Source: Methylacidiphilum sp.
Lineage (GTDB): Bacteria > Verrucomicrobiota > Verrucomicrobiia > CAIQCK01
Length of the DNA: 39,952 nucleotides
Reading direction: 5' to 3'
NCBI GenBank assembly: GCA_020718125.1
Contig: DYDC01000002.1
Location: forward strand, 1 to 39,952
The notes beneath the pieces are model-generated. The model saw nothing but the letters and a program-made list of their open reading frames with translations, was not told the DNA's origin and searched no databases. The translations under genes and the position numbers were made by a program. This document shows, piece after piece, positions 4,700-25,604 of the stretch (position 1 is the stretch's first letter; each line of letters begins with the position of its first letter).

Positions 4700-4895
4700 G
4701 GTGTGATTCTTGCGTATCCCAGCCATTCCCGCAAGCCGAAGAATGGCACCGAGCGGGCAGGGGCAGGGCATCTGGACAGGCTGCCTCGCGACTGATGACT
4801 CTCTACGCGTGGACACGCTCCTTCCCCCTCCTCATCGGGCGAAGGTTGGTTCCATCCCGATCTTGGGCTGATCGGGTGGTGATGGCGGCTTGTTA

Positions 4896-5069: not shown

Positions 5070-5253
5070 AGAGCCACTGGACAGCAGCTATGAGGTCATG
5101 CATCAATCCAATTCACAACAGCATGGCGTTGCGGAAACAGGTGACAGAAATCTCCGGCTGGCGCGTCCGTTGCGCCGTTTTTGTCCGGCCCGTGTTCAAT
5201 TCTGTGCGAACCGAGGCTCGACGCCGTTGCCGCGCAGTGCTACGGATAATGCC

Positions 5254-7041: not shown

Positions 7042-7620
7042 CTAGACAGCCTTCTTCTGCGCAGGCCGTTCCCAAGGCGCTTCTTTCTCACCCCGGCGCT
7101 TGCCGGTCCAGCGAGCCAGCACAAACAGCGCATCGCCGAGACGGTTCAGGTATTTCACCACGGTCTGTTCGCCCGGATGCGGTTCCTCGCGCGCGAGTCG
7201 CACGCAGAGCCGCTCAGCCCGCCGGCAGATCGTCCTTGCCAGGTGCAACAGCGACGGCGCCTTGCCGCCGTCGGGCAGGATGAACTCCTCCAGCGGATTC
7301 AATTCCGTCTCGCAGCGGTCCATCAGTTCCTCCAGCCGTGTCACCTCCGCATCGCCGACGGCTGGCATCCCGTCCATCCGGTCGGCGGGCGCAATACACA
7401 GGACGGAGCCGACGCTGAACAGCTCGTTCTGGAAGGCGCGCAGGATCGTCTCCAACTCCGGGTCGTCGTTGAACGCCCGCGCCACGCCGAGCGCGGAGTT
7501 CAACTCGTCCACCGTGCCGTAGCACTCGACACGCAGGGAGTCTTTGGGCACGCGCTGGCCACCTGCCAGCCCCGTCACGCCCTGGTCGCCCGTCCGTGTA
7601 TAGACTTTTGTGATTCGCAT
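7042..7620 (-). CDS. pduO: ATP:cob(I)alamin adenosyltransferase, PduO type
   Basis: 192 aa. It begins MRITKVYTRTGDQGVTGL....ECYGTVDELNS and also has FILPGG-like (FILPDGG) and ARTICRRAER motifs. Confidence 0.9.
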   Translation of the reverse strand: MRITKVYTRTGDQGVTGLAGGQRVPKDSLRVECYGTVDELNSALGVARAFNDDPELETILRAFQNELFSVGSVLCIAPADRMDGMPAVGDAEVTRLEELMDRCETELNPLEEFILPDGGKAPSLLHLARTICRRAERLCVRLAREEPHPGEQTVVKYLNRLGDALFVLARWTGKRRGEKEAPWERPAQKKAV

Positions 7621-7632
7621 CGTGTGGTCCTC

Positions 7633-8697
7633 CTATCGAAAACTCTGCCGCTTTTCCCTTCTCAAGAGCCAGATGAAGAAAGGCCCGCCGAGCAGCGCCG
7701 TCAAGACGCCCACGGGAAGTTCGAGCGGCGCCATCACCGTCCGGCAGACAGTGTCGCAGATGATCAGGAACCCCGCCCCGCCCAGCAGCGAGCAGGGCAT
7801 CACCAGCCGATGGTCCGCGCCGAACATCATCCGGACCGCGTGCGGCACGATGATGCCGATAAACCCGATTGGCCCGCTGAGCGAGATCACCGCTGCCGTC
7901 ACGATGGACGCGCCGAGAAACACGAGCTGTTTCACGCGGCGCACACTGACGCCGCGGCTGTGGGCGAGCGCCTCGCCGGTCGCCAGCAGGTTCAACGGCC
8001 GTGCCAGCGCCAGCAGCAGCGCGCTGCCGATGGCGAAGAAAATCGCCGCCCGCCACACGGGTCCGAATCCAGTCACGTCGAGGCTGCCCACCGTCCAGCG
8101 CATGATCTGGAAGGCATCCACGAAATCCGCGCGCCAGTAGAGCAGGAACAGGATGATCGCCGAGATGAAGTAGCTGATGATCACGCCCGCCAGCACCATC
8201 GTGGTTGTCGGCAACTGCCCGCGACCGCTCGCGACGAAATACACCAGCCCCACGCTCAACAGGCAGCCCGCAAACGCCGCCGCCGGCAGCGGGGAGACGC
8301 CGAGCGTGTAGAGCAGCGTGCCGATTGCGCTGACCTCGACGCCGCTGCGGATGGCGACGACAGCGCCGAGCGAGCCGCCAGCGGCAATGCCGAGCGTGTA
8401 GGGGTCGGCCAGCGGATTGCGCAGCATCGCCTGGAAGCCCGCGCCCGCCAGCGCCAGCGCCGCGCCGGTCATGGCCGCGAGCACGATCCGCGGCAGCCGC
8501 GCCGTCATCAGGATGAGCATGTCATTGTTGCCAGCCGGCCCGAACAACGCCGTGTGCATGTCAATCGTCGTCGGCCCGATGAACGGGCAGATGGCCGCCG
8601 CGATCACGAAGAACAGCGCCGACAGCGCGAGCGGCATCGCCAGCCGGCGTCCAGTGCTCGCCAGCGGCGCTTCGTCGGATGGGCGTGGCGCGGTCAT
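7633..8697 (-). CDS. btuC: FecCD-family ABC permease (cobalamin/iron-siderophore type, BtuC-like)
   Basis: 354 aa and polytopic. FecCD-like segments: LMTARLPRIVLAAMTGAALALAGAGFQAMLRNPLADPYTLGIAAG and GPIGFIGIIVPHAVR. 4-nt overlap with the upstream ATPase gene. Confidence 0.8.
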   Translation of the reverse strand: MTAPRPSDEAPLASTGRRLAMPLALSALFFVIAAAICPFIGPTTIDMHTALFGPAGNNDMLILMTARLPRIVLAAMTGAALALAGAGFQAMLRNPLADPYTLGIAAGGSLGAVVAIRSGVEVSAIGTLLYTLGVSPLPAAAFAGCLLSVGLVYFVASGRGQLPTTTMVLAGVIISYFISAIILFLLYWRADFVDAFQIMRWTVGSLDVTGFGPVWRAAIFFAIGSALLLALARPLNLLATGEALAHSRGVSVRRVKQLVFLGASIVTAAVISLSGPIGFIGIIVPHAVRMMFGADHRLVMPCSLLGGAGFLIICDTVCRTVMAPLELPVGVLTALLGGPFFIWLLRREKRQSFR

Positions 8698-9461
8698 GAT
8701 TCCAGTGATGGCAGGAAAGCGTCGGCACGGCGGACCTTCACGTCATACACCGAGGCCAGCAGGCGTTCATCAAGCACGTCGGCCGACATCCCGTCATGCA
8801 CGATCCGGCCGGCTTTGAGCAGCACCACCCGCTTGCAGCTCAACGCGGCGAGGTTCAGGTCGTGGACGGCGGCGACAACGGTCGTGCCGCGTTCCTGGTT
8901 GAGATGGCGCAGGAGGCGCATGATCTGGGCCTGGTATTTGATGTCGAGCATCGCCGTCGGCTCGTCCAGCAGCAGAACCTCCGGCGTCTGGGCCAGCGCG
9001 GAAGCAATCATGGCCCGCTGCCGCTCGCCGCCGCTGATCTCGTTGAAGGTGCGGTCGCGGAACTGAAGCGTGTCGGTCCGCAACATCGCCTCGCGCGCAA
9101 TCTCGATGTCCCGCGCCGTCTCGAACTCGAACGGGCCGAGGAATGGGTGCCGGCCCATCAGCACCCGTTCAGCGACCGTGAACCCGAACGTCTCTGGCGC
9201 TTCTTGCGGCACGACCGCGATGGCGCGGGCGATGGCGCGCTGCGGCAGTGTGCGCAAGTCGTGGCCGTTGAGGTGCACTTCGCCGCTGCGGGGATGCAGG
9301 TAAGCGTAGAGCAGCCTCAACAGCGTGGACTTGCCGGAGCCGTTCGGGCCGAGCAGGCCCACGAACTCGCCCGGCTGGATCGCGAGGTTGACGCCGCGGA
9401 TCACTTCGCGCTCATCGTAGGCAAAGGATAGACCGCGTGTTTCAAGGATCGGGGCGCTCAT
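8694..9461 (-). CDS. btuD: ABC transporter ATP-binding protein (BtuD/FecE-like)
   Basis: 255 aa. Walker A GPNGSGKST, signature SGGERQRA, Walker B LLLDEPT, H-loop AVHDLN. Confidence 0.85.
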   Translation of the reverse strand: MSAPILETRGLSFAYDEREVIRGVNLAIQPGEFVGLLGPNGSGKSTLLRLLYAYLHPRSGEVHLNGHDLRTLPQRAIARAIAVVPQEAPETFGFTVAERVLMGRHPFLGPFEFETARDIEIAREAMLRTDTLQFRDRTFNEISGGERQRAMIASALAQTPEVLLLDEPTAMLDIKYQAQIMRLLRHLNQERGTTVVAAVHDLNLAALSCKRVVLLKAGRIVHDGMSADVLDERLLASVYDVKVRRADAFLPSLES

Positions 9462-10309
9462 TGAAGGAGTTTGGCCAGGCCACGGACGGTGTCGCCGATG
9501 CGCGGGCCGGGAATCAGCGCGTGGTCGGAGAGCAGCACGCCCACGTGCCCTGCGGCGACAGCGGGCAGGCTGGAGAACCTGGCCCAGTCTTGTTTGCGGC
9601 GCGCGATGGCCTCCGATGACATGTCGTTGGTCATGCCTTCGCCCATCAACTCGACGATCGCGGCGGGTTTGCGGGCAAGGACGGTCTCAAGGCTGATCTG
9701 GGGCCAGGATTGGTTGACATCGGCCAGCACGTTGGTGCCGCCGGCGATGTTGATGAGGTCGTTGAGAAACCCGCGCGCGCCGACGGTCAGCATGCCTTGG
9801 AAACCGCCCAGCGGCCGGCCGATGACCAGCAATGTCCGCTGCGGAGGCCGGCCGGATGTTTGGGCGCGGACGGCGTCGAGTTCGGCGCGGATGCGGGCCA
9901 CAGCCTCCCGGGCGGCATCAGCGCGGCCGGTGACCTCGCCGAGCTTCTTCATGGCCGCCAGAATTTCCTCCACGGTGTCGGTCTTGAGGGGCAGGGTCGG
10001 CAGACCGGTGCCGCGGCATTGTTCCTGGAGGTGGCGGCTGTAGTCGGCCGTGACGATGAGATCGGGCCGGAGCGCGAGCAGCCGCTCAAAACTGAGGTCG
10101 GCGTAGCCGCCGATCTTCTCGCAGCGCGCAGCTTCAGGCGGATAGCGGCAGAATTGCGTAACACCGACGACCTGGCCGCCCGCGCCGATGGCGAACAGCA
10201 TCTCGGTCAGCGAGGGCACGGTGGAGACGATGCGCTGCGGCGGGCCGGCGTGGGCCGCGAGCGCGCCGAGGCATAGCGCGAGCGGGATGGATCGTGCGAA
10301 AGCGATCAT
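9458..10309 (-). CDS. btuF: Periplasmic binding protein, class III (BtuF-like cobalamin/corrinoid binding)
   Basis: 283 aa with a signal peptide (MIAFARSIPLALCLGALAAHA). Periplasmic-binding-protein type 2 layout: RIVSTVPSLTEMLFAIGAG, VVGVT, LRPDLIV. Confidence 0.75.
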   Translation of the reverse strand: MIAFARSIPLALCLGALAAHAGPPQRIVSTVPSLTEMLFAIGAGGQVVGVTQFCRYPPEAARCEKIGGYADLSFERLLALRPDLIVTADYSRHLQEQCRGTGLPTLPLKTDTVEEILAAMKKLGEVTGRADAAREAVARIRAELDAVRAQTSGRPPQRTLLVIGRPLGGFQGMLTVGARGFLNDLINIAGGTNVLADVNQSWPQISLETVLARKPAAIVELMGEGMTNDMSSEAIARRKQDWARFSSLPAVAAGHVGVLLSDHALIPGPRIGDTVRGLAKLLQ

Positions 10310-10313
10310 GGTG

Positions 10314-10862
10314 TCACGGCAACTTTCCCTTCAACACCATCGGCAGGCCTGCCGCCATGAACACAACCGTGTCGGCGATGGCGGCGATCTGCTGGTTCAG
10401 GCGGCCTTGTTCGTCGCGAAAGCGGCGGGCGAGTTCGTTCTCTGGGACGATGCCAAGGCCGACTTCGTTGGAGACGGCGATGATGTGCGCGGGCCGTTTG
10501 GCCAGCGCGTCGAGCAACGATTGGGCGCGGGCCGGCTCGAAGCGCGACGGCTGGCTGTGGTGCGGCGCGAGCAGGTTGCCCAGCCACACGGTGAGGCAGT
10601 CAATCAGCACGACATCGAACTCCAGGCCGCGCTGGACGAGCACGCGGGCCGGATCGTGGGCCTCCTCGATGGTGGTCCAGTCCGGCCCGCGCGCCATGCG
10701 GTGCTGTGCGATACGCTCCCGCATTTCGTCGTCAAGAGCTTCCGCAGTGGCGAGGAACAGCTTGCGCCGGCCGAGCCGCGCCGCGAACTGTAGCGCCAGG
10801 GTGCTCTTGCCGCTGCGGCAGCCGCCGAGGATGAGGATGCGTTGGTGCGGCGTGGTGGCCAT
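10314..10862 (-). CDS. cobU: Bifunctional adenosylcobinamide kinase / adenosylcobinamide-phosphate guanylyltransferase
   Basis: ORF 10314..11039. The likely start is MATTPHQRILILGGCRSGKS at 10862 (P-loop GGxRSGKS). Downstream motifs: LIDCLTVWLGN, VSNEVGLGIVPEN, FRDEQGRLNQ. Confidence 0.9.
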   Translation of the reverse strand: MATTPHQRILILGGCRSGKSTLALQFAARLGRRKLFLATAEALDDEMRERIAQHRMARGPDWTTIEEAHDPARVLVQRGLEFDVVLIDCLTVWLGNLLAPHHSQPSRFEPARAQSLLDALAKRPAHIIAVSNEVGLGIVPENELARRFRDEQGRLNQQIAAIADTVVFMAAGLPMVLKGKLP

Positions 10863-10864
10863 GG

Positions 10865-11401
10865 TCAGAACTTTACACCGACGCCGCCCTGCACGGCGAG
10901 TCCCGGCGCGGGATTGTAGGCCCGCCACCATGTCGGGTCGGTCCAGCCCGGATAGTGTGTGGTGGGGTAGTTCTCGTAGAGGCTGTCGAGGACGTTGTTC
11001 ACGGCAAGAAAGACGCGGGCGTGTTTGCAGGGCGTCCACGTCAGCTTGGTGTTGACGACGGTGTATTGGTTCCGACCGAAGTCGTTTCGCAGGTCATTGG
11101 TGGGGACTTGCTCGGCCGCGTGGAGGACTTCCCACGACCATGAGAGCCACTTGACCGGCATCCAAATGAGTCCGCCGCTGATCATGTGCTGGGGCACCTG
11201 CGGTATCTGGTTGCCGTCGTAGTCGCCGCCGTCAAAGCGCGAGTCTTGCAGCGTGTAGTTGAGATTCAGGTTGAGCCATTTCATCGGCGAGGAGTGCAGG
11301 CCCAACTCAATGCCGTTGCGGGTCTCATCGAAGTTTTGGTTCTGCGGCCACGGGTCGGCGAACGGGTCGAGCTGGATGTCGTCCTTCATTTGCATATTCA
11401 A
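10865..11401 (-). pseudogene. C-terminal beta-barrel remnant (178 aa) of a TonB-dependent receptor, probably the ancestral btuB-like gene
   Basis: The ORF ends in the typical TBDR C-terminus (..RVFLAVNNVLDSLYEN....GLAVQGGVGVKF, terminal Phe) but has no plug or N-terminal barrel. An in-frame TGA lies immediately upstream of its TTG. Its stop is 2 nt from the cobU start, which indicates native coupling. Confidence 0.7.
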
Positions 11402-11443: not shown

Positions 11444-14400
11444 CTATCGTTTCTTGAAGCCAAGCATTACCAGCCCGACTACCAGAAGGAACCCCAGGAC
11501 GAATAGCCATGGAATAGGGGCTGAAGATGCTGCGCTGCTTGGTGCGCCGGCTTCCTGCATTTCGAATCCTTCTACGGACTTGATCTCCGCCGTGACCTTA
11601 TCCGCGCCCTTTTCGTCAGGAGCGCGACTCTTTGACTCTTGGCTGTTTTGGGTAATAGACTTCGCCGGGTCTCCCGATTGTTGCTGCCGTGCCGGGGGTT
11701 GTTGGCCCTGTTCCGGTTTCTTTATGGTGTTCAAGGCCTTCATGAACCCCTGTTCGAGGGGGCGCAGGCCAGGGACGGACAGGAGCGTGCTGGCAGTGAA
11801 GCTGGTGAGCTGGGGGTTGTTGCAGGTGTGGTCGCAGCAGGCCAGCCCCTCGTTCTGGACGCTTTTGGCATACTCTTCCGCCAGGGCCTCCACTACCTTT
11901 TTATCCGGTTTCCAGTATTCCTTGCGTACCGTCTCCAGCATCCGCGCCACCACCGACTGGTAGGCCCACATATTTTTTGATTGCCGGAACAGCTCCTTGA
12001 TACCCAGGCCGTTTCTGTCCTGCACATAGGTTTCGTACATCTCCTGCCACTTGGCGGCATCCACCGCCTCCGGCACGGTGACCTGCCAGCCCCACAGATG
12101 TTCCGTCACCTTGTCCACGAAGCGCGCCCCGGCATAGCCTTCCTTCATCATCGCCTTGATCCATTCAGGATTCAGATAGCGGGAGCGCATTTCCCGGCCC
12201 ATAACCTTTTCCAAGGTCTCCTGTTTGGGCTGGGTGGGGTTGCTCATGTTGGTGACGTAAACCTCGGGGCTCTTGCCGTCCACGGCGCGGATCGCCATGG
12301 CGGTGCCTCCCAGATACTGGAAGAAATCGTCGTTATCCAGCGTTGCGAAGACATTGGAGGAGCGGCTGTGGATGGCGATCTTGCTACCGGACAGGGCGCT
12401 CTTCAGCAGGGTTTCCCCCAGCTTCTCCCGGCCATGTTCGCCGCTGTCCCCCCAGAACCCCTGGCCGTAGAGGTGGCTCATCCGCATGAAATAGACATCT
12501 GCCACCTGTTGTTCGTTGTCCCAACTGTTGGATGCGACGATCACCTTGTCCAAGTTGGGGCCATAGGCCCCGGAGGGCGTGGTGAATATGCGCACCGTGG
12601 CCAGCCGCCGGGCCTTCTCTTCCGGCATCCCTTTTTCCATCAACATCTTTTGGGTTCTTATGACATTGGTCCGCAGCAGGTTGTCCTCATCAGGCTGGTC
12701 CCGCGCCACGGTCACCGCCTGATCCAAAAGTGCCATCAGATTGGCAAACAGGTCGCGATAGAGGCTGGAGGGAACCATGGTGACGTCAATCCGTCCGCGC
12801 CCCAGCTCCTGCCGCGGGATCGCCTCGACCCCCTTGACGCGGCCCCGCTCGTCCCACTGGGGGCGCACCCCCATCAGATGCATGATCTGCGATTCCATCA
12901 CGCCTTCGTGACGGATGGTTTCAGTGGCCCAGATGTTGAAGGTCAGTTTGTCGGGGTAACTGCCGTGGCGCTTCCGGTATCCGTCAATCAACTCCTGGGC
13001 CAGTTTTGAGCCGGTGGCATAGGTGGCCGGAGAGGGCACCCTGGTGGGATCGAAAGCGTAGAAGTTCTTGCCGGTGGGAAGCGACTCCGGCGCACGGATC
13101 GGGTCGTTGCCCGGCCCGGAGGGGATATACCGTCCCGCCAGGGCCGTGACAAGGGAATCAAGCTCCCGCCGTCCGCTCTCGAGAATGGCCGCTTCAAGCG
13201 CAGCAATCCGTTTCTGCCGCTCTTCGGGTGTAAGCTTCTTCTCAATGGTCACAATCGCCTCGGCCGTGCTTCTCAGGTATGTCCCTTCCGGCGCCTTGCC
13301 GAAGGTATGCAGGCCGAACGGCGTGGTCTTTTCCCCAATATCCCTGATGTAGTCGTCCAGTTCCTCCACCTGTTCAGGAGTTGTGATGCCGGACAGCTTC
13401 AGGTCGGTCAGCAGTCCCCCCTTGCGGGCCAGCCTGTTGATCTCCTCCAGCTTGGCGCTTGCCAGTTGGGGCGATTTTTCCCGTGCGCTGTTGTGGTCGC
13501 CGATCAGCGCGGCCATCTCCTTCAACTCCCGGTTCATGCCGGCTTTGTCAAAGGGGGGCGTCATGTGGTCGATCACCACCCCCATGCCGCGGCGTTTGGC
13601 TTGGAGCCCTTCACCCACGTCATCCACGATGTAGGGGTAAATGTTGGGCAGCTCCTGAATCAGCAGCTCCGGCGGGTCTTCACGGGTAAAGCCCACCTCC
13701 TTGCCGGAGAGCCATTCATGGGTGCCGTGGGTGCCTATATGGGCCACGGCATCGGCCTTGAAGCCGCGCTTGAGCCAGAGATAGAACGCAACATACTGAT
13801 GGTGAGGGGCGATGGTGATGTCATGGTAGAGCTTCTTGACATCCTGTTCCCAGCCCCGCGACGGCTGCGGGGTGAAGAGGATGTTTCCGTATCGCACTGC
13901 GGGGATCACCAGGAACTTTTTCCCGTTCAGGTCATGCCAAGTCATGATGGAGGCGGTATCCGGCTCGCCCCAGTTTTTCACCACTGCCTTGCGGAAGCTC
14001 TCCGGCAGTTCCATGAACCAACTCTTATAGTCCGCCAGCGGGATCAGCACGGCCTGGCCGCTGTGGGCTAGCCGGTCTATCTCCGCCGGGGCCCAATTAC
14101 CGATATTGCGGCCATAGGTATGCAGATCCTCAAACAGACGGTCTTTGGCAAGGTCGGCGCTGCCGATGTCATAGCCTTCAGCCTTCAGCCTGGTGATGAT
14201 CTCATGGAGGCTTTCCGGCAGGACATTCAGATAGGCGGCGCCGATGTTCTGTTTTCCCGGCGGGTAGTTGTAGTAGATGAGGGCGACCTGTTTCGTGCTG
14301 TTCGGCTTCTGTTGCAGGGCCAGCCAGCGTGTAACCCGCGCCGTCAGCCGTTCGATCCGTTCCGGGATCGGGCGGGTCTCGACATATTCAAGGCCGGTGG

Positions 14401-15445
14401 CGCGGTCAACGGCCCGCTCCTTTGTCGCCACCACCGTCGGCTGGATGATCCCGGCCAGTTCCGGCAGGCCGATGGATGAGCTACGCTCGAAGATGTCCAG
14501 CCCGACCGGGGATTTTTCCCATTCCTCACGGGACTGGGAGCGCAGGGTAACGGCGTCAATCACCGGCACCCCCAGGCGGCTCAAGACCGGTATGGCCCGT
14601 TGGGGCGTGATCCCCACCTTGAGCGATACGCCGATCACCGCCTGCACCCTGCTGGCGCCGTTTTCATCAAAGAAATACTGCTCCACCGCCCGTTCCGAGG
14701 GGTAGCCGAAGACCGGCAGCACATTCATCTCCTGCCGCTCCAGCGCATCAATCAGGCTGTCGAGCAGGTCGGTTTCACCGTTGTCCATCATGGTCTTGTA
14801 AAAGGGGATGCCGATCCAGGGACCGGGCCGTTGGCGATAGAGACGACGGTAGTCGGCAAAGTCGGTCACGGTGCGGCGACCTTCCTTCAGGTAGATGCCG
14901 AACTGGGGGATCGCCGCCGGTTCCCGGTATGTCACCGCCAGACCGCAGTCCCGTTTCAGCAGATACAGGATCATGTTGACCGTATTCTCCAGCCCCCCCT
15001 CCTGCTGATAGCGGGCAACCGTGCGGTCATTCTGCAGTCCCAGAGCACGGTCATTCTGGCCGTACGCCCCCCCCACGGCATAGACCTTCATCCCGGCCTG
15101 CTGCATGCTAGTAATGGATGGTTTCAGCAACTCCAGCATCCGGCGATCCATGATATGGACAATGCCGAACCCTATTGCCCCGGCCGGTTGCCCTGTTTGA
15201 GCGGCGGCCTCCCGGCAGAGTCCCGCCTTGGTAACCACCTCAAAGTTGATTCGACGGACCAGTTCGGGATACTTCGTCCTGATGCTATGGACCGCCTGCA
15301 CCGCCTGGCGGGTGTTGAAATCCCCCGGCATCAGACAAACTCGCACCGGCCCTTCGGCGGCCTGGGCAGCAAACGGCAACGCCAGCGTTAGAACCATACC
15401 GGACAGGACGCGCAGCAGCCCAGTTCCAATACTATTCCGGCACAT
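11444..15445 (-). CDS. CobN/Mg-chelatase-family large subunit homolog with N-terminal signal peptide and C-terminal membrane anchor (HmuS-like)
   Basis: 1333 aa. CobN-family blocks: VALIYYNYPPGKQNIGAAYLNV, HIGTHGTHEWLSGKEVG, IPSGPGNDPIR, PTGKNFYAFDP. N-terminus MCRNSIGTGLLRVLSGMVLTLALPFAAQA/AEG. C-terminus is a low-complexity linker, then IPWLFVLGFLLVVGLVMLGF-KKR. Confidence 0.9.
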   Translation of the reverse strand: MCRNSIGTGLLRVLSGMVLTLALPFAAQAAEGPVRVCLMPGDFNTRQAVQAVHSIRTKYPELVRRINFEVVTKAGLCREAAAQTGQPAGAIGFGIVHIMDRRMLELLKPSITSMQQAGMKVYAVGGAYGQNDRALGLQNDRTVARYQQEGGLENTVNMILYLLKRDCGLAVTYREPAAIPQFGIYLKEGRRTVTDFADYRRLYRQRPGPWIGIPFYKTMMDNGETDLLDSLIDALERQEMNVLPVFGYPSERAVEQYFFDENGASRVQAVIGVSLKVGITPQRAIPVLSRLGVPVIDAVTLRSQSREEWEKSPVGLDIFERSSSIGLPELAGIIQPTVVATKERAVDRATGLEYVETRPIPERIERLTARVTRWLALQQKPNSTKQVALIYYNYPPGKQNIGAAYLNVLPESLHEIITRLKAEGYDIGSADLAKDRLFEDLHTYGRNIGNWAPAEIDRLAHSGQAVLIPLADYKSWFMELPESFRKAVVKNWGEPDTASIMTWHDLNGKKFLVIPAVRYGNILFTPQPSRGWEQDVKKLYHDITIAPHHQYVAFYLWLKRGFKADAVAHIGTHGTHEWLSGKEVGFTREDPPELLIQELPNIYPYIVDDVGEGLQAKRRGMGVVIDHMTPPFDKAGMNRELKEMAALIGDHNSAREKSPQLASAKLEEINRLARKGGLLTDLKLSGITTPEQVEELDDYIRDIGEKTTPFGLHTFGKAPEGTYLRSTAEAIVTIEKKLTPEERQKRIAALEAAILESGRRELDSLVTALAGRYIPSGPGNDPIRAPESLPTGKNFYAFDPTRVPSPATYATGSKLAQELIDGYRKRHGSYPDKLTFNIWATETIRHEGVMESQIMHLMGVRPQWDERGRVKGVEAIPRQELGRGRIDVTMVPSSLYRDLFANLMALLDQAVTVARDQPDEDNLLRTNVIRTQKMLMEKGMPEEKARRLATVRIFTTPSGAYGPNLDKVIVASNSWDNEQQVADVYFMRMSHLYGQGFWGDSGEHGREKLGETLLKSALSGSKIAIHSRSSNVFATLDNDDFFQYLGGTAMAIRAVDGKSPEVYVTNMSNPTQPKQETLEKVMGREMRSRYLNPEWIKAMMKEGYAGARFVDKVTEHLWGWQVTVPEAVDAAKWQEMYETYVQDRNGLGIKELFRQSKNMWAYQSVVARMLETVRKEYWKPDKKVVEALAEEYAKSVQNEGLACCDHTCNNPQLTSFTASTLLSVPGLRPLEQGFMKALNTIKKPEQGQQPPARQQQSGDPAKSITQNSQESKSRAPDEKGADKVTAEIKSVEGFEMQEAGAPSSAASSAPIPWLFVLGFLLVVGLVMLGFKKR

Positions 15446-15770
15446 AGACCACCTTCCCGTCCTTGAGCTGGTAGGCGGTGCCCAGCCGCACCCCCTCGCC
15501 GGAAAGCCGTTTGTCCGTCACCTTGCGCACCTTGATCTCCTTCCCCTTCTTGATGATCACCTCGATCTTGCCGTCGGCTGCCTGTTTGGTAATCGTCGTC
15601 TCGGATGTGGGGTCCATCAGGTCCAAAATGTTGTAGGCCATGAACAGGGCGATCATCATGCTGACGATAAAGACCACACTGGCGTCGAACAGGTTGGCCA
15701 CGCCGGAGATTGGGTCCTCCAGCGGTTCGTCGTACTTGTCAAAACGGTTGCGTCGTTTAAGGTGCCTCAT
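15432..15770 (-). CDS. DUF2149-like small bitopic membrane protein (ExbD/TolR-like topology)
   Basis: 112 aa. It has a basic N-terminus, one TM with an embedded Asp (ISGVANLFDASVVFIVSMMIALF), then a soluble beta-rich domain. It overlaps both neighbours by 14 nt. Confidence 0.7.
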   Translation of the reverse strand: MRHLKRRNRFDKYDEPLEDPISGVANLFDASVVFIVSMMIALFMAYNILDLMDPTSETTITKQAADGKIEVIIKKGKEIKVRKVTDKRLSGEGVRLGTAYQLKDGKVVYVPE

Positions 15771-16353
15771 GGTCGCGCTCCTCTTCCGCCGGTTGGGTGG
15801 GACCGCCCAGACGCTGTCGCAGCATCAGTTCGGTCAGGTACTCCATCTCCCGCATGTCGGCCCGGACCCATTTCTCCTTTACCAGCGACATCAGGTAGGC
15901 CGCGATACTGCACGCCAAACCTACAACCACGGTGGTAAAGGCTGTCACCATGCTGCCTGCCATCTTGGGCAGATCCCCTTGAGCAAGTGATGAAAGCGAT
16001 ATGCCCATCGGGATCAGGGTGCCCATTAACCCCAAAGCCGGGCCGACCCGGATCACGAAGCGGATCATGTCCAGCGATTTTACCTGCGCCAGCTCGGTGG
16101 TTTGCAGCAGGCATTCCATGGCGATATCCAGATTGGAGTTCTCCTGCGCATCCGCCAGTGCCGCAGTCAGCACTGTCCGGTAGCGTTCAAGGGGGGTGGA
16201 TATGCCCTGCCGACGTTCCAGCCACTCACGAAGAAATCCGCCAAAGAAGATGGTGACCCATCCCACCAGCAGCACCAGTCCAGCAGCCACCGGAAACAGC
16301 AGCACTGACGAAATCAGGTAAAGAACGGTTTCAAGTCCGGCTAGCAGGTTCAT
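15757..16353 (-). CDS. exbB: MotA/TolQ/ExbB-family proton channel protein
   Basis: 198 aa with three TM segments. Family signature region: IRVGPALGLMGTLIPMGISL....MAGSMVTAFTTVVVGL. Confidence 0.85.
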   Translation of the reverse strand: MNLLAGLETVLYLISSVLLFPVAAGLVLLVGWVTIFFGGFLREWLERRQGISTPLERYRTVLTAALADAQENSNLDIAMECLLQTTELAQVKSLDMIRFVIRVGPALGLMGTLIPMGISLSSLAQGDLPKMAGSMVTAFTTVVVGLACSIAAYLMSLVKEKWVRADMREMEYLTELMLRQRLGGPTQPAEEERDHEAP

Positions 16354-17108
16354 TTGATCTCTCCCTTGTTCCGAAAAAAGCCGATCAGCAGCGCCGCCAT
16401 CAGCAACACCAACAAAATCCCGCCTCCACGGCCGCTTCCGACTGTCGGCTGCAATTCCTTGAGAAATGAGCTGTACATGATTTTAGCCTGTTCAACCTTG
16501 GCCGGCAGAAAGAGGGAGGCGATGAAGTAGATCCCGATGGTGATCATGGCCAGCCCCAGTGAGGGGACTGAACGGCGTGGTGATCCATGTCTGGTAGCCA
16601 GCATCACCAGCAGGGTCATGATGCTGAAAGCGATGCCCAGCACCAGCCCCACGGCCCAAGGAAACAGGGGCAGGTTGTGCAGGGCGGTCCAGGTTGAAAA
16701 AGTCATGGCGGTCAGACAGACCGGGCAGGGGATCAGCAGGGCCAAGGAAGAGCCGGGGGCGGATACCGTCCCCGGTTTCATGATGGTTGCAACCCCCCAC
16801 AGAATCATGCCCAGCGCCATGACTCCATGCAGCCAAGGGCCTCCCCGCAGCAGCGGTTCAACGATCCCCAGCAGCCGGTCAGCAAGAAGGGCGATCAGTT
16901 CAAAGAGCGCCAGATAGAGGCCGAGGGTCAACAGCACCCCTTTTCGGCCAACCTGACCGTATCCCAAGCCTGAACCGACCTTGACGGCAAAGATCCCCAG
17001 GCTGAATAGGGCACCGACAGTCCAGAACATGATATTCAGGTCCTGCCATGAAATCCCCTGTGGGGGAATGGCCGACATTGGATCCAATGCTATCATACTA
17101 TTTACCAT
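16350..17108 (-). CDS. DUF2162-like polytopic membrane protein (predicted transporter) with intramembrane CPVC motif
   Basis: 252 aa with about 6-7 hydrophobic helices. LIPCPVCLTAM lies in a predicted TM. ATGA overlap with exbB-like and a 7-nt overlap with the TBDR stop. Confidence 0.7.
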   Translation of the reverse strand: MVNSMIALDPMSAIPPQGISWQDLNIMFWTVGALFSLGIFAVKVGSGLGYGQVGRKGVLLTLGLYLALFELIALLADRLLGIVEPLLRGGPWLHGVMALGMILWGVATIMKPGTVSAPGSSLALLIPCPVCLTAMTFSTWTALHNLPLFPWAVGLVLGIAFSIMTLLVMLATRHGSPRRSVPSLGLAMITIGIYFIASLFLPAKVEQAKIMYSSFLKELQPTVGSGRGGGILLVLLMAALLIGFFRNKGEIK

Positions 17109-19327
17109 TTGAGTGCCAGTTCAACATAGTAACTGCGTCCGCGGCCGATGTAGTAGGAGTAGTATTCCCGGTCGAACACGTTGTCCACGTAGAATGAGAC
17201 CTTCAATCGCTCGATGGGCTTGATCGTAAGGTGCGTGTCCCACAACCAACATTTCGTGTAGCCTCCGTAAACATCTTCCTCGTCGTTGTTGAGTTCCGTG
17301 GTGTAAATGCGCCCTGTGTAACGCCCGCTGATGCCGCATTGAATCCACTTGTAGCTGACATCGGCTCCGAGCTTGACCATTTCATCCGGCACGCTCGGAA
17401 GCCGCTGGCCTTCCGCATCAGGCTGGCGATCGTTCTTCAACACTTCCGAAAGCGTGTAAGTGTAATTGCCCCACAACCTCAGCCAGTCCCAAGGTTGGAA
17501 GGACAGTTCCGCCTCCACGCCGTCAAGTTGGGCGTTGGCGACGTTTTCCTTGTAGCTGTCCCTGGTGCCATAAATGTTGTTCGTGGTGTAGGAACTGATC
17601 ACGTTGTCCAGTATCGAGTGAAAGTAAGTCACGCCGGCCTTGATTTTGCGGTCCCAGAAATACTGGTCCACCCCACCCTCGAAGTTCCAGATGGTTTCCG
17701 GTTCGAGATTGGGGTTGGAGTGATACGTGGTGGTGCCAGAGAACCAGGTCCGATACATCTCGTATAGCGTCGGCGCGCGAAACGCCTCGCCGATAGAGCC
17801 GCGCACGTAGGTATCGTCCATCGCATGCCACACGGCGGAAAACTTCGGAGTCAAAGCCCAGTCGTCCGGTGCGTCAAACTTCTCCACCTTGGATACCGGA
17901 CCGGACTGTCCGTCGAAGGCAGACCAATGATCGAAGCGCAATCCGCCGTAAACCGTCAGGTTCTCCATGACCTTCCATTCATCCTGAAAATAAAGCGCCT
18001 GCGAACAATCTGCGCCATCCGTGAGATCGGTCTTAACGGTCTTGCTGTCGGGATCGCGATAGAAGCTCACGTCGTAGCCCTCTTGGGAAAGATCGTCGTA
18101 GCGAAAATAAACCCCGAACGTGACCGTGTGGTCGTCCAGAACCGGAATGGACCCCTGCCAATCGGCGAGCCACGCGCGCATGGTGGACTGACTGTAGTCG
18201 CCGGGAGAGGTGTAGTAGTTCTGATTGGTTGTTGCGCTGCTCGTGGCATACCAAGCATCCCTCGTTTGGAAACCCACGCGGGTCTTCATCACCAGTTCTC
18301 CGAATTTGTCATCGTAACCGATGCCCGTGATGACATAGTCCTCGCTTCCAGGCCCGGTGCCAGAGACGAAAGTAGATGGCGTAATGCTCGCGGTGGCATA
18401 GCCGTTGCCTACGTTCATTCTGCCACTCATCGCAGCATTGCCGGAGGAATCCATCATATAGGTGTGAGGCCGATCATAGCCATATTCGTGGTGCCCATAC
18501 TGGAAGTCCAGGAACACCGTGCCGGTTTTTGTTATGTCGTATCCGAGTTCCAGATTCGCGTTCCATTTCTGCGCCCAGTTGTCTCCCCTGTCGCCAATCG
18601 TCCATTGCGCCGCGCCGGTCGTGCTTTGGGTTGGATGACCTCCATGCAATTGGGTCGTGCCCCCGCCGATGGCGCTCTTGCTGACGTTGCGAGTTACAGG
18701 ATTCGCGACATAACCGTCGGTTTCCTCCATTTCATAGCCGACTCGAAACCAGAACTTCTCGTCTATGCGATCGCCCGCGTGAAACGAGTGGCGGATGGTG
18801 TTGTCCGACCCATAACCCGCCTTGGCCTCGATTTCCAGTTCCTGCGGCCTCGCCGTGATGATATTGATCACGCCGCCCATCGCATAGCCGCCGTAAAGGG
18901 CCGATGATGGACCGCGCACGACCTCGATCCGTTCAATGTTCTCCGCGCTGATCTCGTTCCAAGACACTCCGCCGTCATAGCCGCTGTTGATCGGCAGTCC
19001 GTTCATCAGAACCAGAGTTCGATTCTGACCATAAAGGCCGCGCATGAAAACACTGGCCATCGCATCCGCGAGACCTTTGGTCCGGCGAACATAGACCCCC
19101 GATTCGTGCTTGAGCGCGTCATCCACGGTTTGGACATGTTGTTGCTCGATCTGTTGCTTGGTCACGACGGTGGCGTGTGCGGGTGCTTCATCGAGTGTTT
19201 TCTCGCTTCGAGTGGCGGTTACCACCACCTCGTCCATCACGGGCGTTTGACTCACAACATGGGTCGTGTCTTGGGCGACGGCGCACGCTACGGCGAACGG
19301 CAATACGGCGATGGCGAACCTTTGCAT
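17102..19327 (-). CDS. TonB-dependent outer-membrane receptor (full length)
   Basis: ORF 17102..19489. The likely start is MQRFAIAVLPFAVACAVAQD at 19327. It has a TonB box/plug (DEVVVTATRSEKTLDEAPAHATVV), plug motifs (RGLYGQNRTLVLMNG, VVRGPSSALYGG), and a C-terminus ..YYVELALKW. Confidence 0.9.
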   Translation of the reverse strand: MQRFAIAVLPFAVACAVAQDTTHVVSQTPVMDEVVVTATRSEKTLDEAPAHATVVTKQQIEQQHVQTVDDALKHESGVYVRRTKGLADAMASVFMRGLYGQNRTLVLMNGLPINSGYDGGVSWNEISAENIERIEVVRGPSSALYGGYAMGGVINIITARPQELEIEAKAGYGSDNTIRHSFHAGDRIDEKFWFRVGYEMEETDGYVANPVTRNVSKSAIGGGTTQLHGGHPTQSTTGAAQWTIGDRGDNWAQKWNANLELGYDITKTGTVFLDFQYGHHEYGYDRPHTYMMDSSGNAAMSGRMNVGNGYATASITPSTFVSGTGPGSEDYVITGIGYDDKFGELVMKTRVGFQTRDAWYATSSATTNQNYYTSPGDYSQSTMRAWLADWQGSIPVLDDHTVTFGVYFRYDDLSQEGYDVSFYRDPDSKTVKTDLTDGADCSQALYFQDEWKVMENLTVYGGLRFDHWSAFDGQSGPVSKVEKFDAPDDWALTPKFSAVWHAMDDTYVRGSIGEAFRAPTLYEMYRTWFSGTTTYHSNPNLEPETIWNFEGGVDQYFWDRKIKAGVTYFHSILDNVISSYTTNNIYGTRDSYKENVANAQLDGVEAELSFQPWDWLRLWGNYTYTLSEVLKNDRQPDAEGQRLPSVPDEMVKLGADVSYKWIQCGISGRYTGRIYTTELNNDEEDVYGGYTKCWLWDTHLTIKPIERLKVSFYVDNVFDREYYSYYIGRGRSYYVELALKW

Positions 19328-19392
19328 GGACTGATTTCTCCACTGTTGCGAGGGACCAGTCATCCGGCGGAGACGAAGGCGGGAAAGCGTCG

Positions 19393-19436
19393 CAAATAAA
19401 AAGCCCTCAACTCCGCATCGGGAAGACTGAAGGCTT
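19393..19436 (-). terminator. Intrinsic terminator/attenuator in the leader of the TBDR operon (riboswitch expression platform candidate)
   Basis: Minus strand: AAGCCUUCA-(18 nt, itself partly paired)-UGAGGGCUU followed by UUUUAUUU. It lies 66 nt upstream of the TBDR ATG and about 140 nt downstream of the aptamer. Confidence 0.5.
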
Positions 19437-19459
19437 GTCGAAGACCCGGGCCATTGGGT

Positions 19460-19494
19460 ATTCCGCATTCCGCACTCCGCGTTCTGCATTTCCC
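19460..19494 (-). repeat. Degenerate tandem heptamer repeat (GCGGAAT)n in the TBDR leader
   Basis: The forward strand reads attccgc attccgc actccgc gttctgc atttccc. Confidence 0.6.
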
Positions 19495-19574
19495 CGTGGC
19501 CGCCCCCTCATCCTTCCTTCTTGCGAAGAAGTATGTTTCCCACGGCTCCTGTGAGCCGCGGACGATGAGCGCGC

Positions 19575-19740
19575 GTTGGCCGGTCTCCTGACTTCTGGCA
19601 TCAACCTTGACCTCGCCTTCCCAACCGTCTTGCGACGACCAGTGGCGTCTTGAGGTCTCGTAGCCAGTCACAGTGGCGCGACCGTGCCGGATTCACACCG
19701 GCTTCCCGTAAACATTCCGCATCCGCGGAACGCACCAACT
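19575..19740 (-). ncRNA. Cobalamin (AdoCbl) riboswitch aptamer
   Basis: Minus strand: GGGAAGCCGGUGUGAAUCCGGCACGGUCGCGCCACUGUGA ... GCCACUGG ... GGGAAGGCGA ... GAAGUCAGGAGACCGGCC (B12 box). P1 candidate GUUGG/CCAAC. Confidence 0.9.
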
Positions 19741-19839
19741 CGCGGCAGTATAAACTGTGTCAAAGAACCGCGCGCACTCTAGCGGCGCGGCGGCGCGCCA
19801 CTCAAGAACTTTCTTGCCGCCGCCGCTTTGACCGCATGC

Positions 19840-19869
19840 TTGACTCGGCTGTTGCCAGCCGCCTAGTAT
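19840..19869 (+). promoter_or_regulatory. Sigma-70-like promoter candidate for the B12 biosynthesis operon
   Basis: TTGACT (19840-19845), an 18-nt spacer, then TAGTAT (19864-19869). This places a start site just before the + strand riboswitch. Confidence 0.35.
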
Positions 19870-20030
19870 CGCCGTGACATGCAGGGAAGCTGGTGTGACT
19901 CCAGCGCGGCCCCGCCACTGTGACCGGGGACGAAAGCCGCTTGAAAAGCCACTGTCACAATGTGGTGGTTGCGATGGGAAGGCTGCGGTGAGTAGGCCGA
20001 TCCGGAAGCCAGGATACCAGAACGCGCGCT
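19870..20030 (+). ncRNA. Cobalamin (AdoCbl) riboswitch aptamer
   Basis: GGGAAGCUGGUGUGACUCCAGCGCGGCCCCGCCACUGUGACC ... AGCCACUGU ... GGGAAGGCUG ... GAAGCCAGGAUACCAGAA (B12-box-like). Confidence 0.9.
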
Positions 20031-20082
20031 TGTCGCGCTCCTTCGAGGGAAGGCCATGCCTGGCTTTGCCCGCACTGGCTTG

Positions 20083-20115
20083 AGCCTGTTCCTCGGAGAA
20101 CAGGCTTTTATTTTT
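20083..20115 (+). terminator. Intrinsic terminator/attenuator (expression platform of the + strand riboswitch)
   Basis: AGCCUGUUC-cucgga-GAACAGGCU followed by UUUAUUUUU. It ends 18 nt before the GTG start at 20133. Confidence 0.6.
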
Positions 20116-20132
20116 GCGGGCGAGGTCGAAGC

Positions 20133-24159: not shown

Positions 24160-25604
24160 GCGCGCGTTGCCCAGCGTCGGTCATTGGCGGCGCCGGCAGC
24201 GGTGTTGGGAAAACATCGCTGACGCTCGGTCTGGCGGCGGCGCTGAAGCAGCGGGGCTTGCGTGTGCAGACGTTCAAGGTCGGCCCGGATTTTCTGGACC
24301 CGACGTATCTGGCGCTCGCATCAGGCCGCACCTGCTACAACCTCGACGGCTGGATGGCCGGGCGCGATTACGTCGAGCGGTTGTTCGCGCGCGCAACGGC
24401 GGACGCGGACATCGCGTTGATCGAGGGCGTCATGGGCCTATTTGACGGCGCGTCGGCGACTTCGCTCGAAGGTTCCACTGCCGAGATCGCGACGTGGTTG
24501 GACGCGCCGGTCTTGCTGGCAATCAACGCGCATGGCGTTGCGCGCAGTGTAGCGGCGGAGGTGAAGGGGTTTGCCACGTTTGAGCCAGCGGTGCGGATTG
24601 CCGGTGTCATCGCGAACCAGATTGGCGGCCAGCGGCATCGGCGGATGTTGGGTGAAGCGCTCGCGACCGCTCAACTGCCGCCGCTGGTCGGGGCCATGCC
24701 GCGCGGTGCGCTGCCGGCGTTGCCGAGCCGTCACTTGGGCTTGGTGACGGCAGACGCGGAGGTGTTGCCGGAGGAAACGATAGAGCGGCTGGCGGCGGCG
24801 TGCGTGGAGCATTTGGATTTGGATGGGATTGTGAAGATGGGTGACTGTAGCCGCCGACGTGAGGAGGCGGTGGACGTGGCTCGACATTCCAATGTCGAGA
24901 CGGGCGGTTGCGATACGCTGCCACAGCCCACGATCTCGACATTGGAATGTCGAGCGACTACCGGCTCCAAGCACTTTCGTCTCGGCGTCGCTTGGGATCG
25001 CGCGTTCCACTTTTATTATCCTGACAATCTCGAGGCGTTGGCGGCTGGCGGCGCCGAGATCGTGAAGTTCTCGCCCATCGCCGACCGCGCTTTGCCGCCC
25101 GACCTCGGCGCGATCTGCCTCGGCGGCGGTTATCCGGAAGTCCACGCCGAGGCGCTCTCTGCCAACCAGCCGATGCGCGAGGCCATCGCGGCATTTGCGG
25201 CGAGCGGGCGAGCGGTCTATGCCGAGTGCGGCGGGCTGATGTATTTGGGCCGGACGGTTCGCGCGCTGGACGGCCGCGTGTGGCCGATGGCGGGCGTGAT
25301 CCCGATCGAGACGGCGATGCTGGAACGGTTGCGCGCGTTGGGCTACGTCGAGGTGGAGTTGGCGGCGGATTCGTTGTGGGGCAGGGCGGGTCAGGCGCTG
25401 CGCGGCCACGAGTTTCATTACTCGGAAATCCGCAACGACGACTCGGCAGCGCAGGGCTGGCAGAAACCTTACCGCGTGGCTCATCGGCGCGGCGGGTCCG
25501 CGGCGGATGGGTTTCAGAAGGGCAACATTGTGGCCAGCTACGTCCATCTACATTTCGCATCGCGACCCGAGGCGGTGCGGCACTTCATTGAGGAAAGTTT
25601 ATGA
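24156..25604 (+). CDS. cbiA: Cobyrinic acid a,c-diamide synthase
   Basis: 482 aa. N-terminal ATPase (GAGSGVGKTSLTLGLAAAL..KVGPDFLDPTY..NLDGW) and C-terminal GATase (YAECGGLMYL, GHEFHYS). It contains an in-frame palindromic insert in the interdomain linker. Confidence 0.9.
   Translation: MSARCPASVIGGAGSGVGKTSLTLGLAAALKQRGLRVQTFKVGPDFLDPTYLALASGRTCYNLDGWMAGRDYVERLFARATADADIALIEGVMGLFDGASATSLEGSTAEIATWLDAPVLLAINAHGVARSVAAEVKGFATFEPAVRIAGVIANQIGGQRHRRMLGEALATAQLPPLVGAMPRGALPALPSRHLGLVTADAEVLPEETIERLAAACVEHLDLDGIVKMGDCSRRREEAVDVARHSNVETGGCDTLPQPTISTLECRATTGSKHFRLGVAWDRAFHFYYPDNLEALAAGGAEIVKFSPIADRALPPDLGAICLGGGYPEVHAEALSANQPMREAIAAFAASGRAVYAECGGLMYLGRTVRALDGRVWPMAGVIPIETAMLERLRALGYVEVELAADSLWGRAGQALRGHEFHYSEIRNDDSAAQGWQKPYRVAHRRGGSAADGFQKGNIVASYVHLHFASRPEAVRHFIEESL
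24880..24954. repeat. 75-bp element bounded by two 20-nt self-complementary repeats, in frame inside cbiA
   Basis: ctcgacattccaatgtcgag (24880-24899) and ctcgacattggaatgtcgag (24935-24954) are exact reverse complements of each other. Each is a 9-bp-arm palindrome. 75 nt equals 25 codons. Confidence 0.65.

Follow-up and report, generated by a model that had tools for sequence, protein, structure and literature searches.

HmuS is a CobN-like heme dechelatase whose structure has been solved (9d26; PMC12583661). In Porphyromonas gingivalis it belongs to the hmuR/S/T/U/V set, which also encodes the MotA/ExbB-like protein HmuU and the DUF2149 protein HmuV (PMC11681262), and in the published model HmuU and HmuV together energise the receptor (PMC12583661). 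The authors of the structure (Nath et al. 2025) defined the HmuS family by a Met-rich insertion of ~120 residues, by the axial heme ligands Met-79 plus His-254, as well as by the motifs LSLDHxxEFMGG and HFG(T/A)HG; His-1209 of the first motif faces the catalytic His-538 (PMC12583661). B12-regulated, btuB-linked chelatase homologues, named BtuS, were described by Rodionov et al. in 2003 as a third type of CobN with a predicted role in metalloporphyrin salvage, as far as that work is cited in PMC6460266. A periplasmic topology has been predicted for BtuS1/2 (PMC6460266) and for HmuS (PMC12583661). Hmu-like operons behind a cobalamin riboswitch were noted in 2023, and an action on cobalamin was suggested for them (PMC10100974). 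For no bacterium has an uptake route specific for cobalt across the outer membrane been confirmed (PMC7689651). Here we describe a five-gene module of this kind, led by a cobalamin riboswitch and ending in a CobN-like gene, from Methylacidiphilum sp. (assembly GCA_020718125.1, contig DYDC01000002.1, positions 1 to 39,952); the whole stretch of 39,952 nucleotides (nt) is referred to as the window. The module lies on a 7.9-kb cassette that took the place of codons 1 to ~540 of the host's native btuB gene, and its link to B12 is a property of the clade to which the CobN-like protein belongs. We favour, at a probability of roughly 45%, the reading that the module is an acquired BtuS/Hmu-like system for the acquisition of cobalt or corrinoids with release of the metal, switched on when adenosylcobalamin is scarce.

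A cobalamin riboswitch switches its genes on under B12 shortage, and their products serve either corrinoid import or cobalt supply and B12 synthesis. In the window, the riboswitch is followed on the minus strand by five open reading frames (ORFs) encoding a TonB-dependent receptor, a DUF2162 protein, a MotA/ExbB-like protein, a DUF2149 protein and a CobN-family protein of 1333 amino acids (aa), with overlaps between successive ORFs of 7, 4, 14 and 14 nt. This is the arrangement that an earlier sequence-only reading of the same DNA had proposed, and ORFs, Pfam families and the Rfam match all agree with it. The attenuator named in that reading was likewise recovered, as a terminator-like hairpin with a U-tract that separates the aptamer from the start of the receptor gene; the automatic consensus terminator scan, whose limit is exceeded by the loop, did not call it. 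No HmuY gene is present: the riboswitch leader goes straight into the start codon of the receptor, with no ORF in between.

Hydropathy analysis of the CobN-like protein yielded exactly two hydrophobic segments, at residues 5-23 (followed by AQA/AEG) and 1311-1329 (followed by KKR), in agreement with the N-terminal signal and the C-terminal membrane segment proposed earlier; this architecture recurs in nearly all of ~70 relatives. By the positive-inside rule, the body between them is predicted to be extracytoplasmic, in agreement with the published predictions for BtuS1/2 and HmuS. The active-site motif HIGTHG (residues 569-574, including His573, the counterpart of the catalytic His-538 of HmuS) is kept in essentially all of the ~70 relatives. 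A second motif, LDNDD at residues 1036-1040, reads ATLDNDDFFQYLGG and follows the same pattern as bona fide CobN (LDSDDYYQFEGG); the form LDxDD is common to all ~70 relatives, whereas LSLDH occurs in 79 of 80 true HmuS loci. Further motifs are CCDHTC (1203-1208), which in the form CCDHTCNNP is nearly invariant in the clade, and the anchor SSAPIPWLF...KKR, for which the clade form SSAPIP[WY]LF..GF...R/K is highly conserved.

Among solved structures HmuS ranked first (9d26, E = 4e-147), ahead of CobN and ChlH. Met-79 of HmuS has a counterpart in M99. His-254, however, aligns to Val277 (SLKVGIT) across the clade, His-1209 is matched by Asp1040 and Glu-1212 by Gln1043, a pattern shared with CobN, and the Met-rich insertion (HmuS residues ~700-890) is without a counterpart, query residues 733 and 714 abutting between two aligned blocks. 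As these HmuS-defining residues are missing, heme dechelatase activity is not simply transferable to the protein. The comparison with an Hmu-like gene set made in the sequence-only reading therefore holds for the families, which match hmuR/S/T/U/V, and for the top-ranking structure, but not for the residues that define HmuS. All nine NCBIfam equivalog models for CobN and BchH scored below their cut-offs (top score 916 vs 1619), and the protein is therefore assigned, on sequence grounds, to a separate subfamily that combines HmuS-like topology and operon with a CobN-like set of active-site ligands. The earlier statement that no chelatase partners are encoded was borne out, with no AAA+ or vWA partner among the genes of the window and no such cluster among the neighbours of 80 related loci.

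These 80 related loci (labelled L with a number below) are from Desulfobacterota, Nitrospirota, Thermodesulfobacteriota, Desantisbacteria, anammox Planctomycetota, Bacteroidota, Burkholderiales, Bacillota, Actinomycetota and Methanobacteria. Most of them retain the gene order DUF2162-MotA-DUF2149-CobN-like. The MotA-like and DUF2149 genes stand beside the CobN-like gene in nearly every locus with a long enough contig, two Methanobacterium loci being the exceptions, and DUF2162 is absent only from the Bacteroidota, Rubrivivax and most anammox versions. The search for riboswitches relied on an nhmmer profile, made from aptamers that Rfam had confirmed and compared with Rfam results on 15 loci; the profile missed one adenosylcobalamin-variant riboswitch (RF01482, L020) and superseded a regular-expression search that had found only 5 loci. 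Loci with at least 1 kb of sequence upstream of the module were considered evaluable (n = 52). A cobalamin riboswitch on the same strand was found upstream in 31 of these 52, often in tandem, whereas none was found upstream of the operon in the 80 true HmuS loci used as control. The B12 link, which had been drawn from the window alone, thus extends across the clade, and relatives in at least eight phyla are usually riboswitch-controlled. In L008, L010, L026 and L031 the riboswitch lies directly ahead of DUF2162, with the receptor elsewhere or absent. LDxDD, CCDHTC and a riboswitch together mark the clade, and LSLDH, the Met-rich insertion and the lack of a riboswitch mark HmuS; the two sets of features separate the groups cleanly.

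A BtuC search of genomes placed the host lineage in the Verrucomicrobiota, with 88% identity to a groundwater metagenome-assembled genome (MAG; L081). The order in L081 is riboswitch, an intact btuB of 700 aa, cobU, btuF, btuD, btuC and pduO, and five blocks of 84-87% nt identity could be aligned with the window. L081 positions 1-458, comprising riboswitch and leader, match window 19772-19323 (86.8% nt identity of the aptamer to the L081 leader, in which the sequence of the hairpin is conserved too), and the 3' end of its btuB together with cobU-btuF-btuD-btuC-pduO matches window 11354-7118. Between these matches the window carries the cassette (junctions in Table 1). A 178-aa fragment of a TonB-dependent receptor between the CobN-like gene and cobU, missed in the sequence-only reading, is the remnant of the native btuB: it shares 84.5% nt identity with the 3' end of btuB in L081, where the gene is intact, and only ~28% identity with the cassette's own receptor. 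The fragment was also considered as a decayed second receptor of the cassette, such as several relatives have after the CobN-like gene, and this was rejected at ≤32% identity to those receptors against 84% nt identity to L081 btuB. Loss in L081 instead of gain in the window was rejected as well, as the L081 gene is intact and full-length and the window copy truncated. The remnant shows a 27-nt deletion relative to L081, and the in-frame ATG at the junction could permit translation of a barrel fragment.

The cobalamin riboswitch ahead of the module is native to the host and not cassette-borne. Since the cassette displaced the 5' part of btuB, the host's own btuB promoter and riboswitch now serve for its transcription. 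No terminator-like site was found in a minus-strand scan between 11444 and 10838. The single transcription unit with cobU, btuFDC and pduO that had been proposed is present as a gene order, but because the cassette was inserted into the native btuB operon the shared transcript is secondary and not an ancestral association. Horizontal acquisition, suggested earlier from base composition, is seen directly in the comparison with L081, and the G+C content is in line with it: 0.56-0.60 for cassette genes vs 0.65-0.68 for the flanks and 0.649 for the native L081 btuB. Lines of 60 nt contained on average 35.2 G+C inside the module (range 26-44) as against 39.8 outside it, in the flanks (range 30-49; Mann-Whitney p = 3e-21), so that the contrast is real, although smaller than hand counts had indicated. 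The CobN-like protein closest to that of the window is found in L161, in an unrelated genomic context, where the order is tandem cobalamin riboswitches, receptor, DUF2162, MotA, DUF2149, CobN-like and TonB. Identities between window and L161 are 78% for DUF2162, 86% for the MotA-like protein, 89% for DUF2149, 84% for the CobN-like protein and 33% for the receptor. The cassette is mosaic, with DUF2162-MotA-DUF2149-CobN-like as its conserved core.

The receptor probably does not start at 19489, as assumed earlier. The ORF as called carries a 54-codon N-terminal extension that is not receptor sequence, and the internal Met at 19327 (MQRFAIAVLPFAVACAVAQD...) is most likely the true start, being followed by a signal peptide and the TonB box DEVVVTA. 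The receptor scored below every NCBIfam cut-off (TonB-B12 205 bits vs 599.7; TonB-hemin 206 vs 317), and its PDB sequence matches to Cir, PhuR and BtuB were equally weak, so that B12, heme and siderophore types were not told apart. Receptors of related modules share no more than 33-37% identity with it.

Of the three inner-membrane proteins, the DUF2162 protein probably starts downstream of 17108, the database gene call being 242 aa. Its intramembrane PCPxC motif is invariant (PCP[VIAC]C in homologues, PCPCC in the versions from Actinomycetota and Ammonifex); PCPxC-type motifs occur in membrane sites carrying soft metals, or in thiol relays. Comparison of the MotA-like protein with canonical ExbB by hhalign gave a probability of 77% (E = 2e-5), and with its Pfam match this indicates a genuine member of the MotA/ExbB family. 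The DUF2149 protein consists of a single membrane helix, in which Asp29 (ANLFDAS) is invariant, and of a periplasmic domain of small size; in the stator partners ExbD, TolR and MotB the membrane-helix Asp is D25, D23 and D32, respectively. DUF2149 was rejected as an ExbD homologue, with no match to Pfam ExbD (PF02472) and with E = 0.14 and a probability of 0.4% in hhalign against ExbD from the same loci; it appears to resemble ExbD, TolR and MotB in layout and membrane-helix Asp only. Of the ExbB/ExbD-like motor postulated earlier, the ExbB half is upheld by homology, but the ExbD half is not. AlphaFold2 models were left unused, as that of DUF2162 (30-sequence alignment) was of low confidence (predicted local distance difference test (pLDDT) 60, predicted template modelling score 0.35) and that of DUF2149 (25 sequences, all ≥79% identical; pLDDT 53) too poor for fold comparison. 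DUF2149 is unusually conserved, with 79-90% identity among Verrucomicrobiota, Desulfobacterota and Nitrospirota; over the same loci the CobN-like protein is 58-84% and DUF2162 44-78% identical. In a Caldimicrobium MAG (L049, 8445-9638) a single ORF fuses DUF2162 to the MotA/ExbB-like protein, a Rosetta-stone hint of one complex.

Recurrent neighbours of the module in the 80 loci were a CbiO-like ATPase (23 loci), a canonical ExbB-ExbD-TonB set (18), a signal-peptide-bearing BtuF-CbiZ fusion (13), a lone TonB gene placed directly upstream of DUF2162 (about 12), CbiQ (11), CbiM (10), CbiK (9) and CysG (8); a BtuC-type permease was present in two. The cobalt-related genes among them (CbiM, CbiQ, CbiO-like, CbiK, CysG) are mostly on the strand of the module, and the relatives adjoin CbiMNQO, CbiK or BtuF-CbiZ far more often than BtuCD. 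The BtuF-CbiZ proteins (~680 aa) consist of a signal peptide, a BtuF-type periplasmic binding domain and CbiZ, an adenosylcobinamide amidohydrolase; they were found in L051 (11468-13501), L004, L007, L017, L025, L036, L037, L042, L046, L049, L066, L068 and L070, and their position near or inside the module suggests corrinoid trimming in the periplasm. In the window itself, genes for CbiM/N/Q/O, a CbiX-CbiC fusion, CbiD, CbiG and CbiJ lie under a second, divergent cobalamin riboswitch. As the host has this anaerobic B12 route (CbiX, CbiD, CbiG, CbiJ), it needs no CobN for biosynthesis.

In the cobalt-acquisition system that we favour, the receptor would let a ligand that carries cobalt into the periplasm; a corrinoid, or some other tetrapyrrole or chelate of cobalt, is the most likely candidate. 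The periplasmic body of the CobN-like protein would bind the ligand in its central cleft (His573 / Asp1039-Asp1040) and free or exchange the metal, as HmuS does with heme iron. The MotA-like protein and DUF2149, with its Asp29, would form a proton-conducting, stator-like unit that supports the metal step, while DUF2162 may pass metal or reducing equivalents across the membrane through its PCPxC motif; the trio could be coupled to the chelatase by the conserved C-terminal anchor, to the receptor by TonB, or to both. Co2+ would then enter through CbiMNQO, whose genes lie behind the divergent riboswitch at a distance of 7 kb, and feed the CbiX-dependent anaerobic B12 pathway, and intact corrinoids would still be handled by BtuFCD, CobU and PduO. 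A cobalt-scavenging role is favoured because genes for cobalt importers and for early steps of the cobalt pathway often adjoin the module, because HmuS strips iron from heme, and because the Zur-regulated genes PA1922-PA1925 of Pseudomonas aeruginosa are tied to metal starvation. The sequence-only reading had called such a role not established for the family; this is true of experiments, but the idea itself is already found in the BtuS (2003) and Hmu-like operon (2023) literature.

Several points weigh against this reading. The cobalt of corrins is kinetically very inert, and we know of no enzyme that removes it. The active-site motif LDxDD is that of CobN, i.e., of the insertion type, and not the LSLDH of HmuS, and the direction of the reaction is therefore not fixed by the HmuS precedent; for the B12-regulated members metal release is a prediction. 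The BtuF-CbiZ neighbours in 13 loci and the replacement of btuB fit the handling of intact corrinoids equally well. That B12-regulon genes lie together may be due to nothing more than shared regulation, 21 of the 52 evaluable loci are without an upstream riboswitch, and the receptor substrate could not be assigned from sequence by the NCBIfam and PDB searches.

The alternative that survives best, although we consider it rather unlikely, is a dedicated corrinoid importer, in which the receptor would be a BtuB analogue, the MotA-like and DUF2149 proteins would act with TonB as equivalents of ExbB and ExbD, and the CobN-like protein would bind, hand off or remodel corrinoids in the periplasm with no metal chemistry. 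Functional replacement of the native btuB in a corrinoid-salvage operon is what such an importer would do, the periplasmic BtuF-CbiZ fusions are fitting neighbours for it, and the published Hmu model assigns an energising role to HmuU and HmuV. The lone TonB genes also point this way, standing directly upstream of DUF2162 in the loci counted above, and, in L161 and L162, directly downstream (3') of the gene for the CobN-like protein, with no canonical ExbBD nearby. An importer would, however, make a second ExbBD redundant in the 18 loci with a complete canonical ExbB-ExbD-TonB set, which in several cases (L009, L035 and L069 among them) lies in the same riboswitch-led string. Moreover, DUF2162-MotA-DUF2149-CobN-like occurs without any receptor in loci from Actinomycetota (L075) and Ammonifex (L074), the receptor was swapped between L161 and the window while the four core genes stayed together, and a class I chelatase body of 1250 aa with intact active-site motifs exceeds the needs of a binding protein.

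The same observations bear on whether the proton channel serves the chelatase, the receptor or both, a question raised by the sequence-only reading, and the comparative evidence points both ways. The lone TonB genes speak for the receptor. The persistence of the MotA-DUF2149 pair in the two receptor-less loci, its co-occurrence with canonical ExbB-ExbD-TonB and the exchangeable receptor speak for the chelatase, as do the translational coupling of DUF2149 to the CobN-like gene and the conserved anchor of the CobN-like protein. A more specific proposal is that the MotA/ExbB-like and DUF2149 proteins, possibly with DUF2162, form a motor by which the proton-motive force drives the exported CobN-like protein through its C-terminal helix, as ExbBD grips TonB, so that cobalt would be extracted or inserted in the periplasm with no AAA+ ATPase; we regard this as doubtful.

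Improbable is a forward chelatase, i.e., insertion of cobalt by the CobN-like protein into imported metal-free corrinoids or tetrapyrroles in the periplasm, with a stator driven by the proton-motive force in place of the AAA+ motor. The true CobN-type motifs (HxGTHG and LDxDD..Q..GG), the near-constant company of the MotA-DUF2149 pair and the highly conserved anchor SAPIP[WY]LF..GF would agree with it, but the host inserts cobalt early, by CbiX, the adjacency of CbiMNQO points to the cytoplasm as the place where cobalt is wanted, the sole characterised exported relative (HmuS) works in the direction of removal, and we know of no common source of metal-free corrinoids. Least probable of all is an HmuS-type heme dechelatase serving iron supply, with B12 control as an accident of the landing site: no solved structure is closer than that of HmuS, the operon families coincide and the riboswitch of the window is the host's own btuB riboswitch, but Val277 replaces His-254, LDNDD replaces LSLDH, the Met-rich insertion and a HmuY gene are absent, L161 with its 84% identical protein has its own tandem riboswitches, and the riboswitch link of the clade (31 of 52 loci) is missing from the HmuS loci.

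Table 1. Features of the module, its insertion site and its surroundings, in positions of the window.
Feature	Position	Strand	Basis and remarks
Cobalamin riboswitch aptamer	19561..19754	-	Rfam RF00174, 103.5 bits vs gathering score 31.5, model positions 1-189 (full)
Terminator-like hairpin with U-tract, putative expression platform	~19393..19436	-	14-pair stem, then UUUUUAUUU; dG (folding free energy) -17.2 kcal/mol (manual fold)
Cassette left junction	19323..19327	-	At receptor start codon; L081 homology (from 19772) stops right after ATG
TonB-dependent receptor	17102..19327	-	Pfam Plug and TonB_dep_Rec_b-barrel; ORF as called 17102-19489
DUF2162 (HmuT-type) polytopic membrane protein	16350..17108	-	PF09930, 193 bits; ~7 hydrophobic segments
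MotA/TolQ/ExbB-family proton-channel protein (HmuU-type)	15757..16353	-	PF01618, 46 bits vs cut-off 22.9
DUF2149 (HmuV-type) bitopic protein	15432..15770	-	PF09919, 108 bits
CobN-family protein, predicted periplasm-facing, with C-terminal membrane anchor	11444..15445	-	PF02514 CobN-Mg_chel, 1048.7 bits vs cut-off 24.5
Cassette right junction	11385..11395 (~11390)	-	L081 btuB homology back at about GACGACATCCAG
Native btuB remnant, last 178 aa, ending GVGVKF	10865..11401	-	Between CobN-like stop and cobU; Pfam barrel positions 297-436 of 436
Native corrinoid-salvage genes cobU, btuF, btuD, btuC, pduO-type adenosyltransferase	7042..10838	-	Pfam; same order in L081, 84-86% nt identity
Second, divergent cobalamin riboswitch	19884-20018	+	80 bits; leads anaerobic cbi operon
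Clean terminator hairpin 3' of divergent riboswitch	20082-20107	+	
Fusion of class I/II aminotransferase (CobD-type) and CobQ/CbiP amidotransferase, 851 aa	20133-22688	+	In cbi operon
CbiX-CbiC gene fusion	25601-26602	+	In cbi operon
IspH/LytB with N-terminal extension	4795-6483	+	Extension of ~200 aa, no Pfam match there
Helix-turn-helix domain fused to metallo-beta-lactamase-fold domain	35398-36222	-	

The two riboswitches of the window stand back to back within one intergenic region of ~800 nt (about 19330-20130). Among the related loci, tandem aptamers 100-1200 nt apart are common before the module (L002, L005, L008, L030, L038, L070, L161), and L002 has six cobalamin aptamers within 24 kb. 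In L016 a group II intron catalytic domain (RF00029, positions 62-217) lies upstream of a module that has no riboswitch. L001 (JBAYZR010000136.1), labelled Pedobacter sp., carries a Geobacterales-like riboswitch and a module that is 76% identical to that of the window, with motifs near-identical to those of L005; the label looks like a binning error.

For cobalt, including the tightly complexed cobalt that anaerobes meet, the B12-repressed module is a concrete candidate for the missing outer-membrane route. Desulfobacterota, Nitrospirota, anammox Planctomycetota and Verrucomicrobiota are among the phyla that carry the set, often beside CbiMNQO, and the clade signature can be used to correct the blanket annotation "cobaltochelatase CobN". 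The replacement of btuB in the window, with the gene intact in the sister genome, is a natural experiment, and speaks for a module able to do the work of a B12 receptor or to do it better. If proton-channel proteins indeed drive a chelatase homologue, ideas on the energy source of class I chelatases would have to be revised; if, in addition, the reaction runs in the direction of extraction, the CobN-like protein would be the first enzyme that recovers cobalt from corrinoid-type ligands.

Compared with the hmuYRSTUV operons of Bacteroides thetaiotaomicron and P. gingivalis, the module has the corresponding receptor, DUF2162-type HmuT, MotA/ExbB HmuU and DUF2149 HmuV, and its CobN-like protein shares with HmuS export with terminal membrane segments, the His of HxGTHG, M99 in the place of Met-79 and a C-terminal Cys motif. 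It differs from HmuS in the lack of the Met-rich insertion, in Val for His-254 and in LDNDDFFQ for LSLDHxxE. The gene order is R-T-U-V-S without HmuY instead of Y-R-S-T-U-V, and control is by a cobalamin riboswitch instead of iron. The hosts of hmu are Bacteroidales, whereas those of the clade are environmental anaerobes and Verrucomicrobiota. BtuS proteins resemble that of the module in being B12-regulated relatives of CobN that stand apart from the biosynthetic CobN and ChlH; both are linked to a TonB-dependent receptor and have a predicted periplasmic, membrane-anchored position, and for BtuS and the riboswitch-preceded Hmu-like operons salvage of metalloporphyrins or cobalamin has been proposed; this likeness to BtuS1 of B. 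fragilis is one of description and not of the BtuS1 sequence, and the Bacteroidota members of our sample, unlike the clade, are without CCDHTCNNP and SSAPIP[WY]LF. In P. aeruginosa PA1922-PA1925, receptor, CobN-like, MotA/ExbB-family and DUF2149 genes form one operon induced by zinc starvation, a gene order also seen in the Rubrivivax loci L057 and L058, but this operon is regulated by Zur and not by B12, and has no DUF2162.

With CobNST and ChlHID the module protein shares PF02514 over the whole body and the CobN-type motifs HxGTHG and LDxDD..Q..GG, but it is exported and anchored, is without an AAA+ or vWA partner in the window, and stands in a host in which cobalt is inserted by CbiX. Like ExbBD-TonB, MotAB and TolQR, the module combines a MotA_ExbB domain with a small bitopic partner that has an invariant membrane-helix Asp. 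Unlike them, its DUF2149 has no significant similarity to the ExbD profile, and there is a third partner, DUF2162, once fused to MotA; the pair is accompanied by canonical ExbBD-TonB in 18 loci and persists in two loci that lack a receptor. The module of the window is an added member of a kind that is already known (BtuS/Hmu-like) and for whose B12-regulated members roles have been predicted. New to this kind are the replacement of btuB by a cassette in Verrucomicrobiota, the four-gene core, the signature that sets the clade apart from HmuS, the quantified association with riboswitches, the neighbourhood of cobalt transporters and the observations on the motor question.

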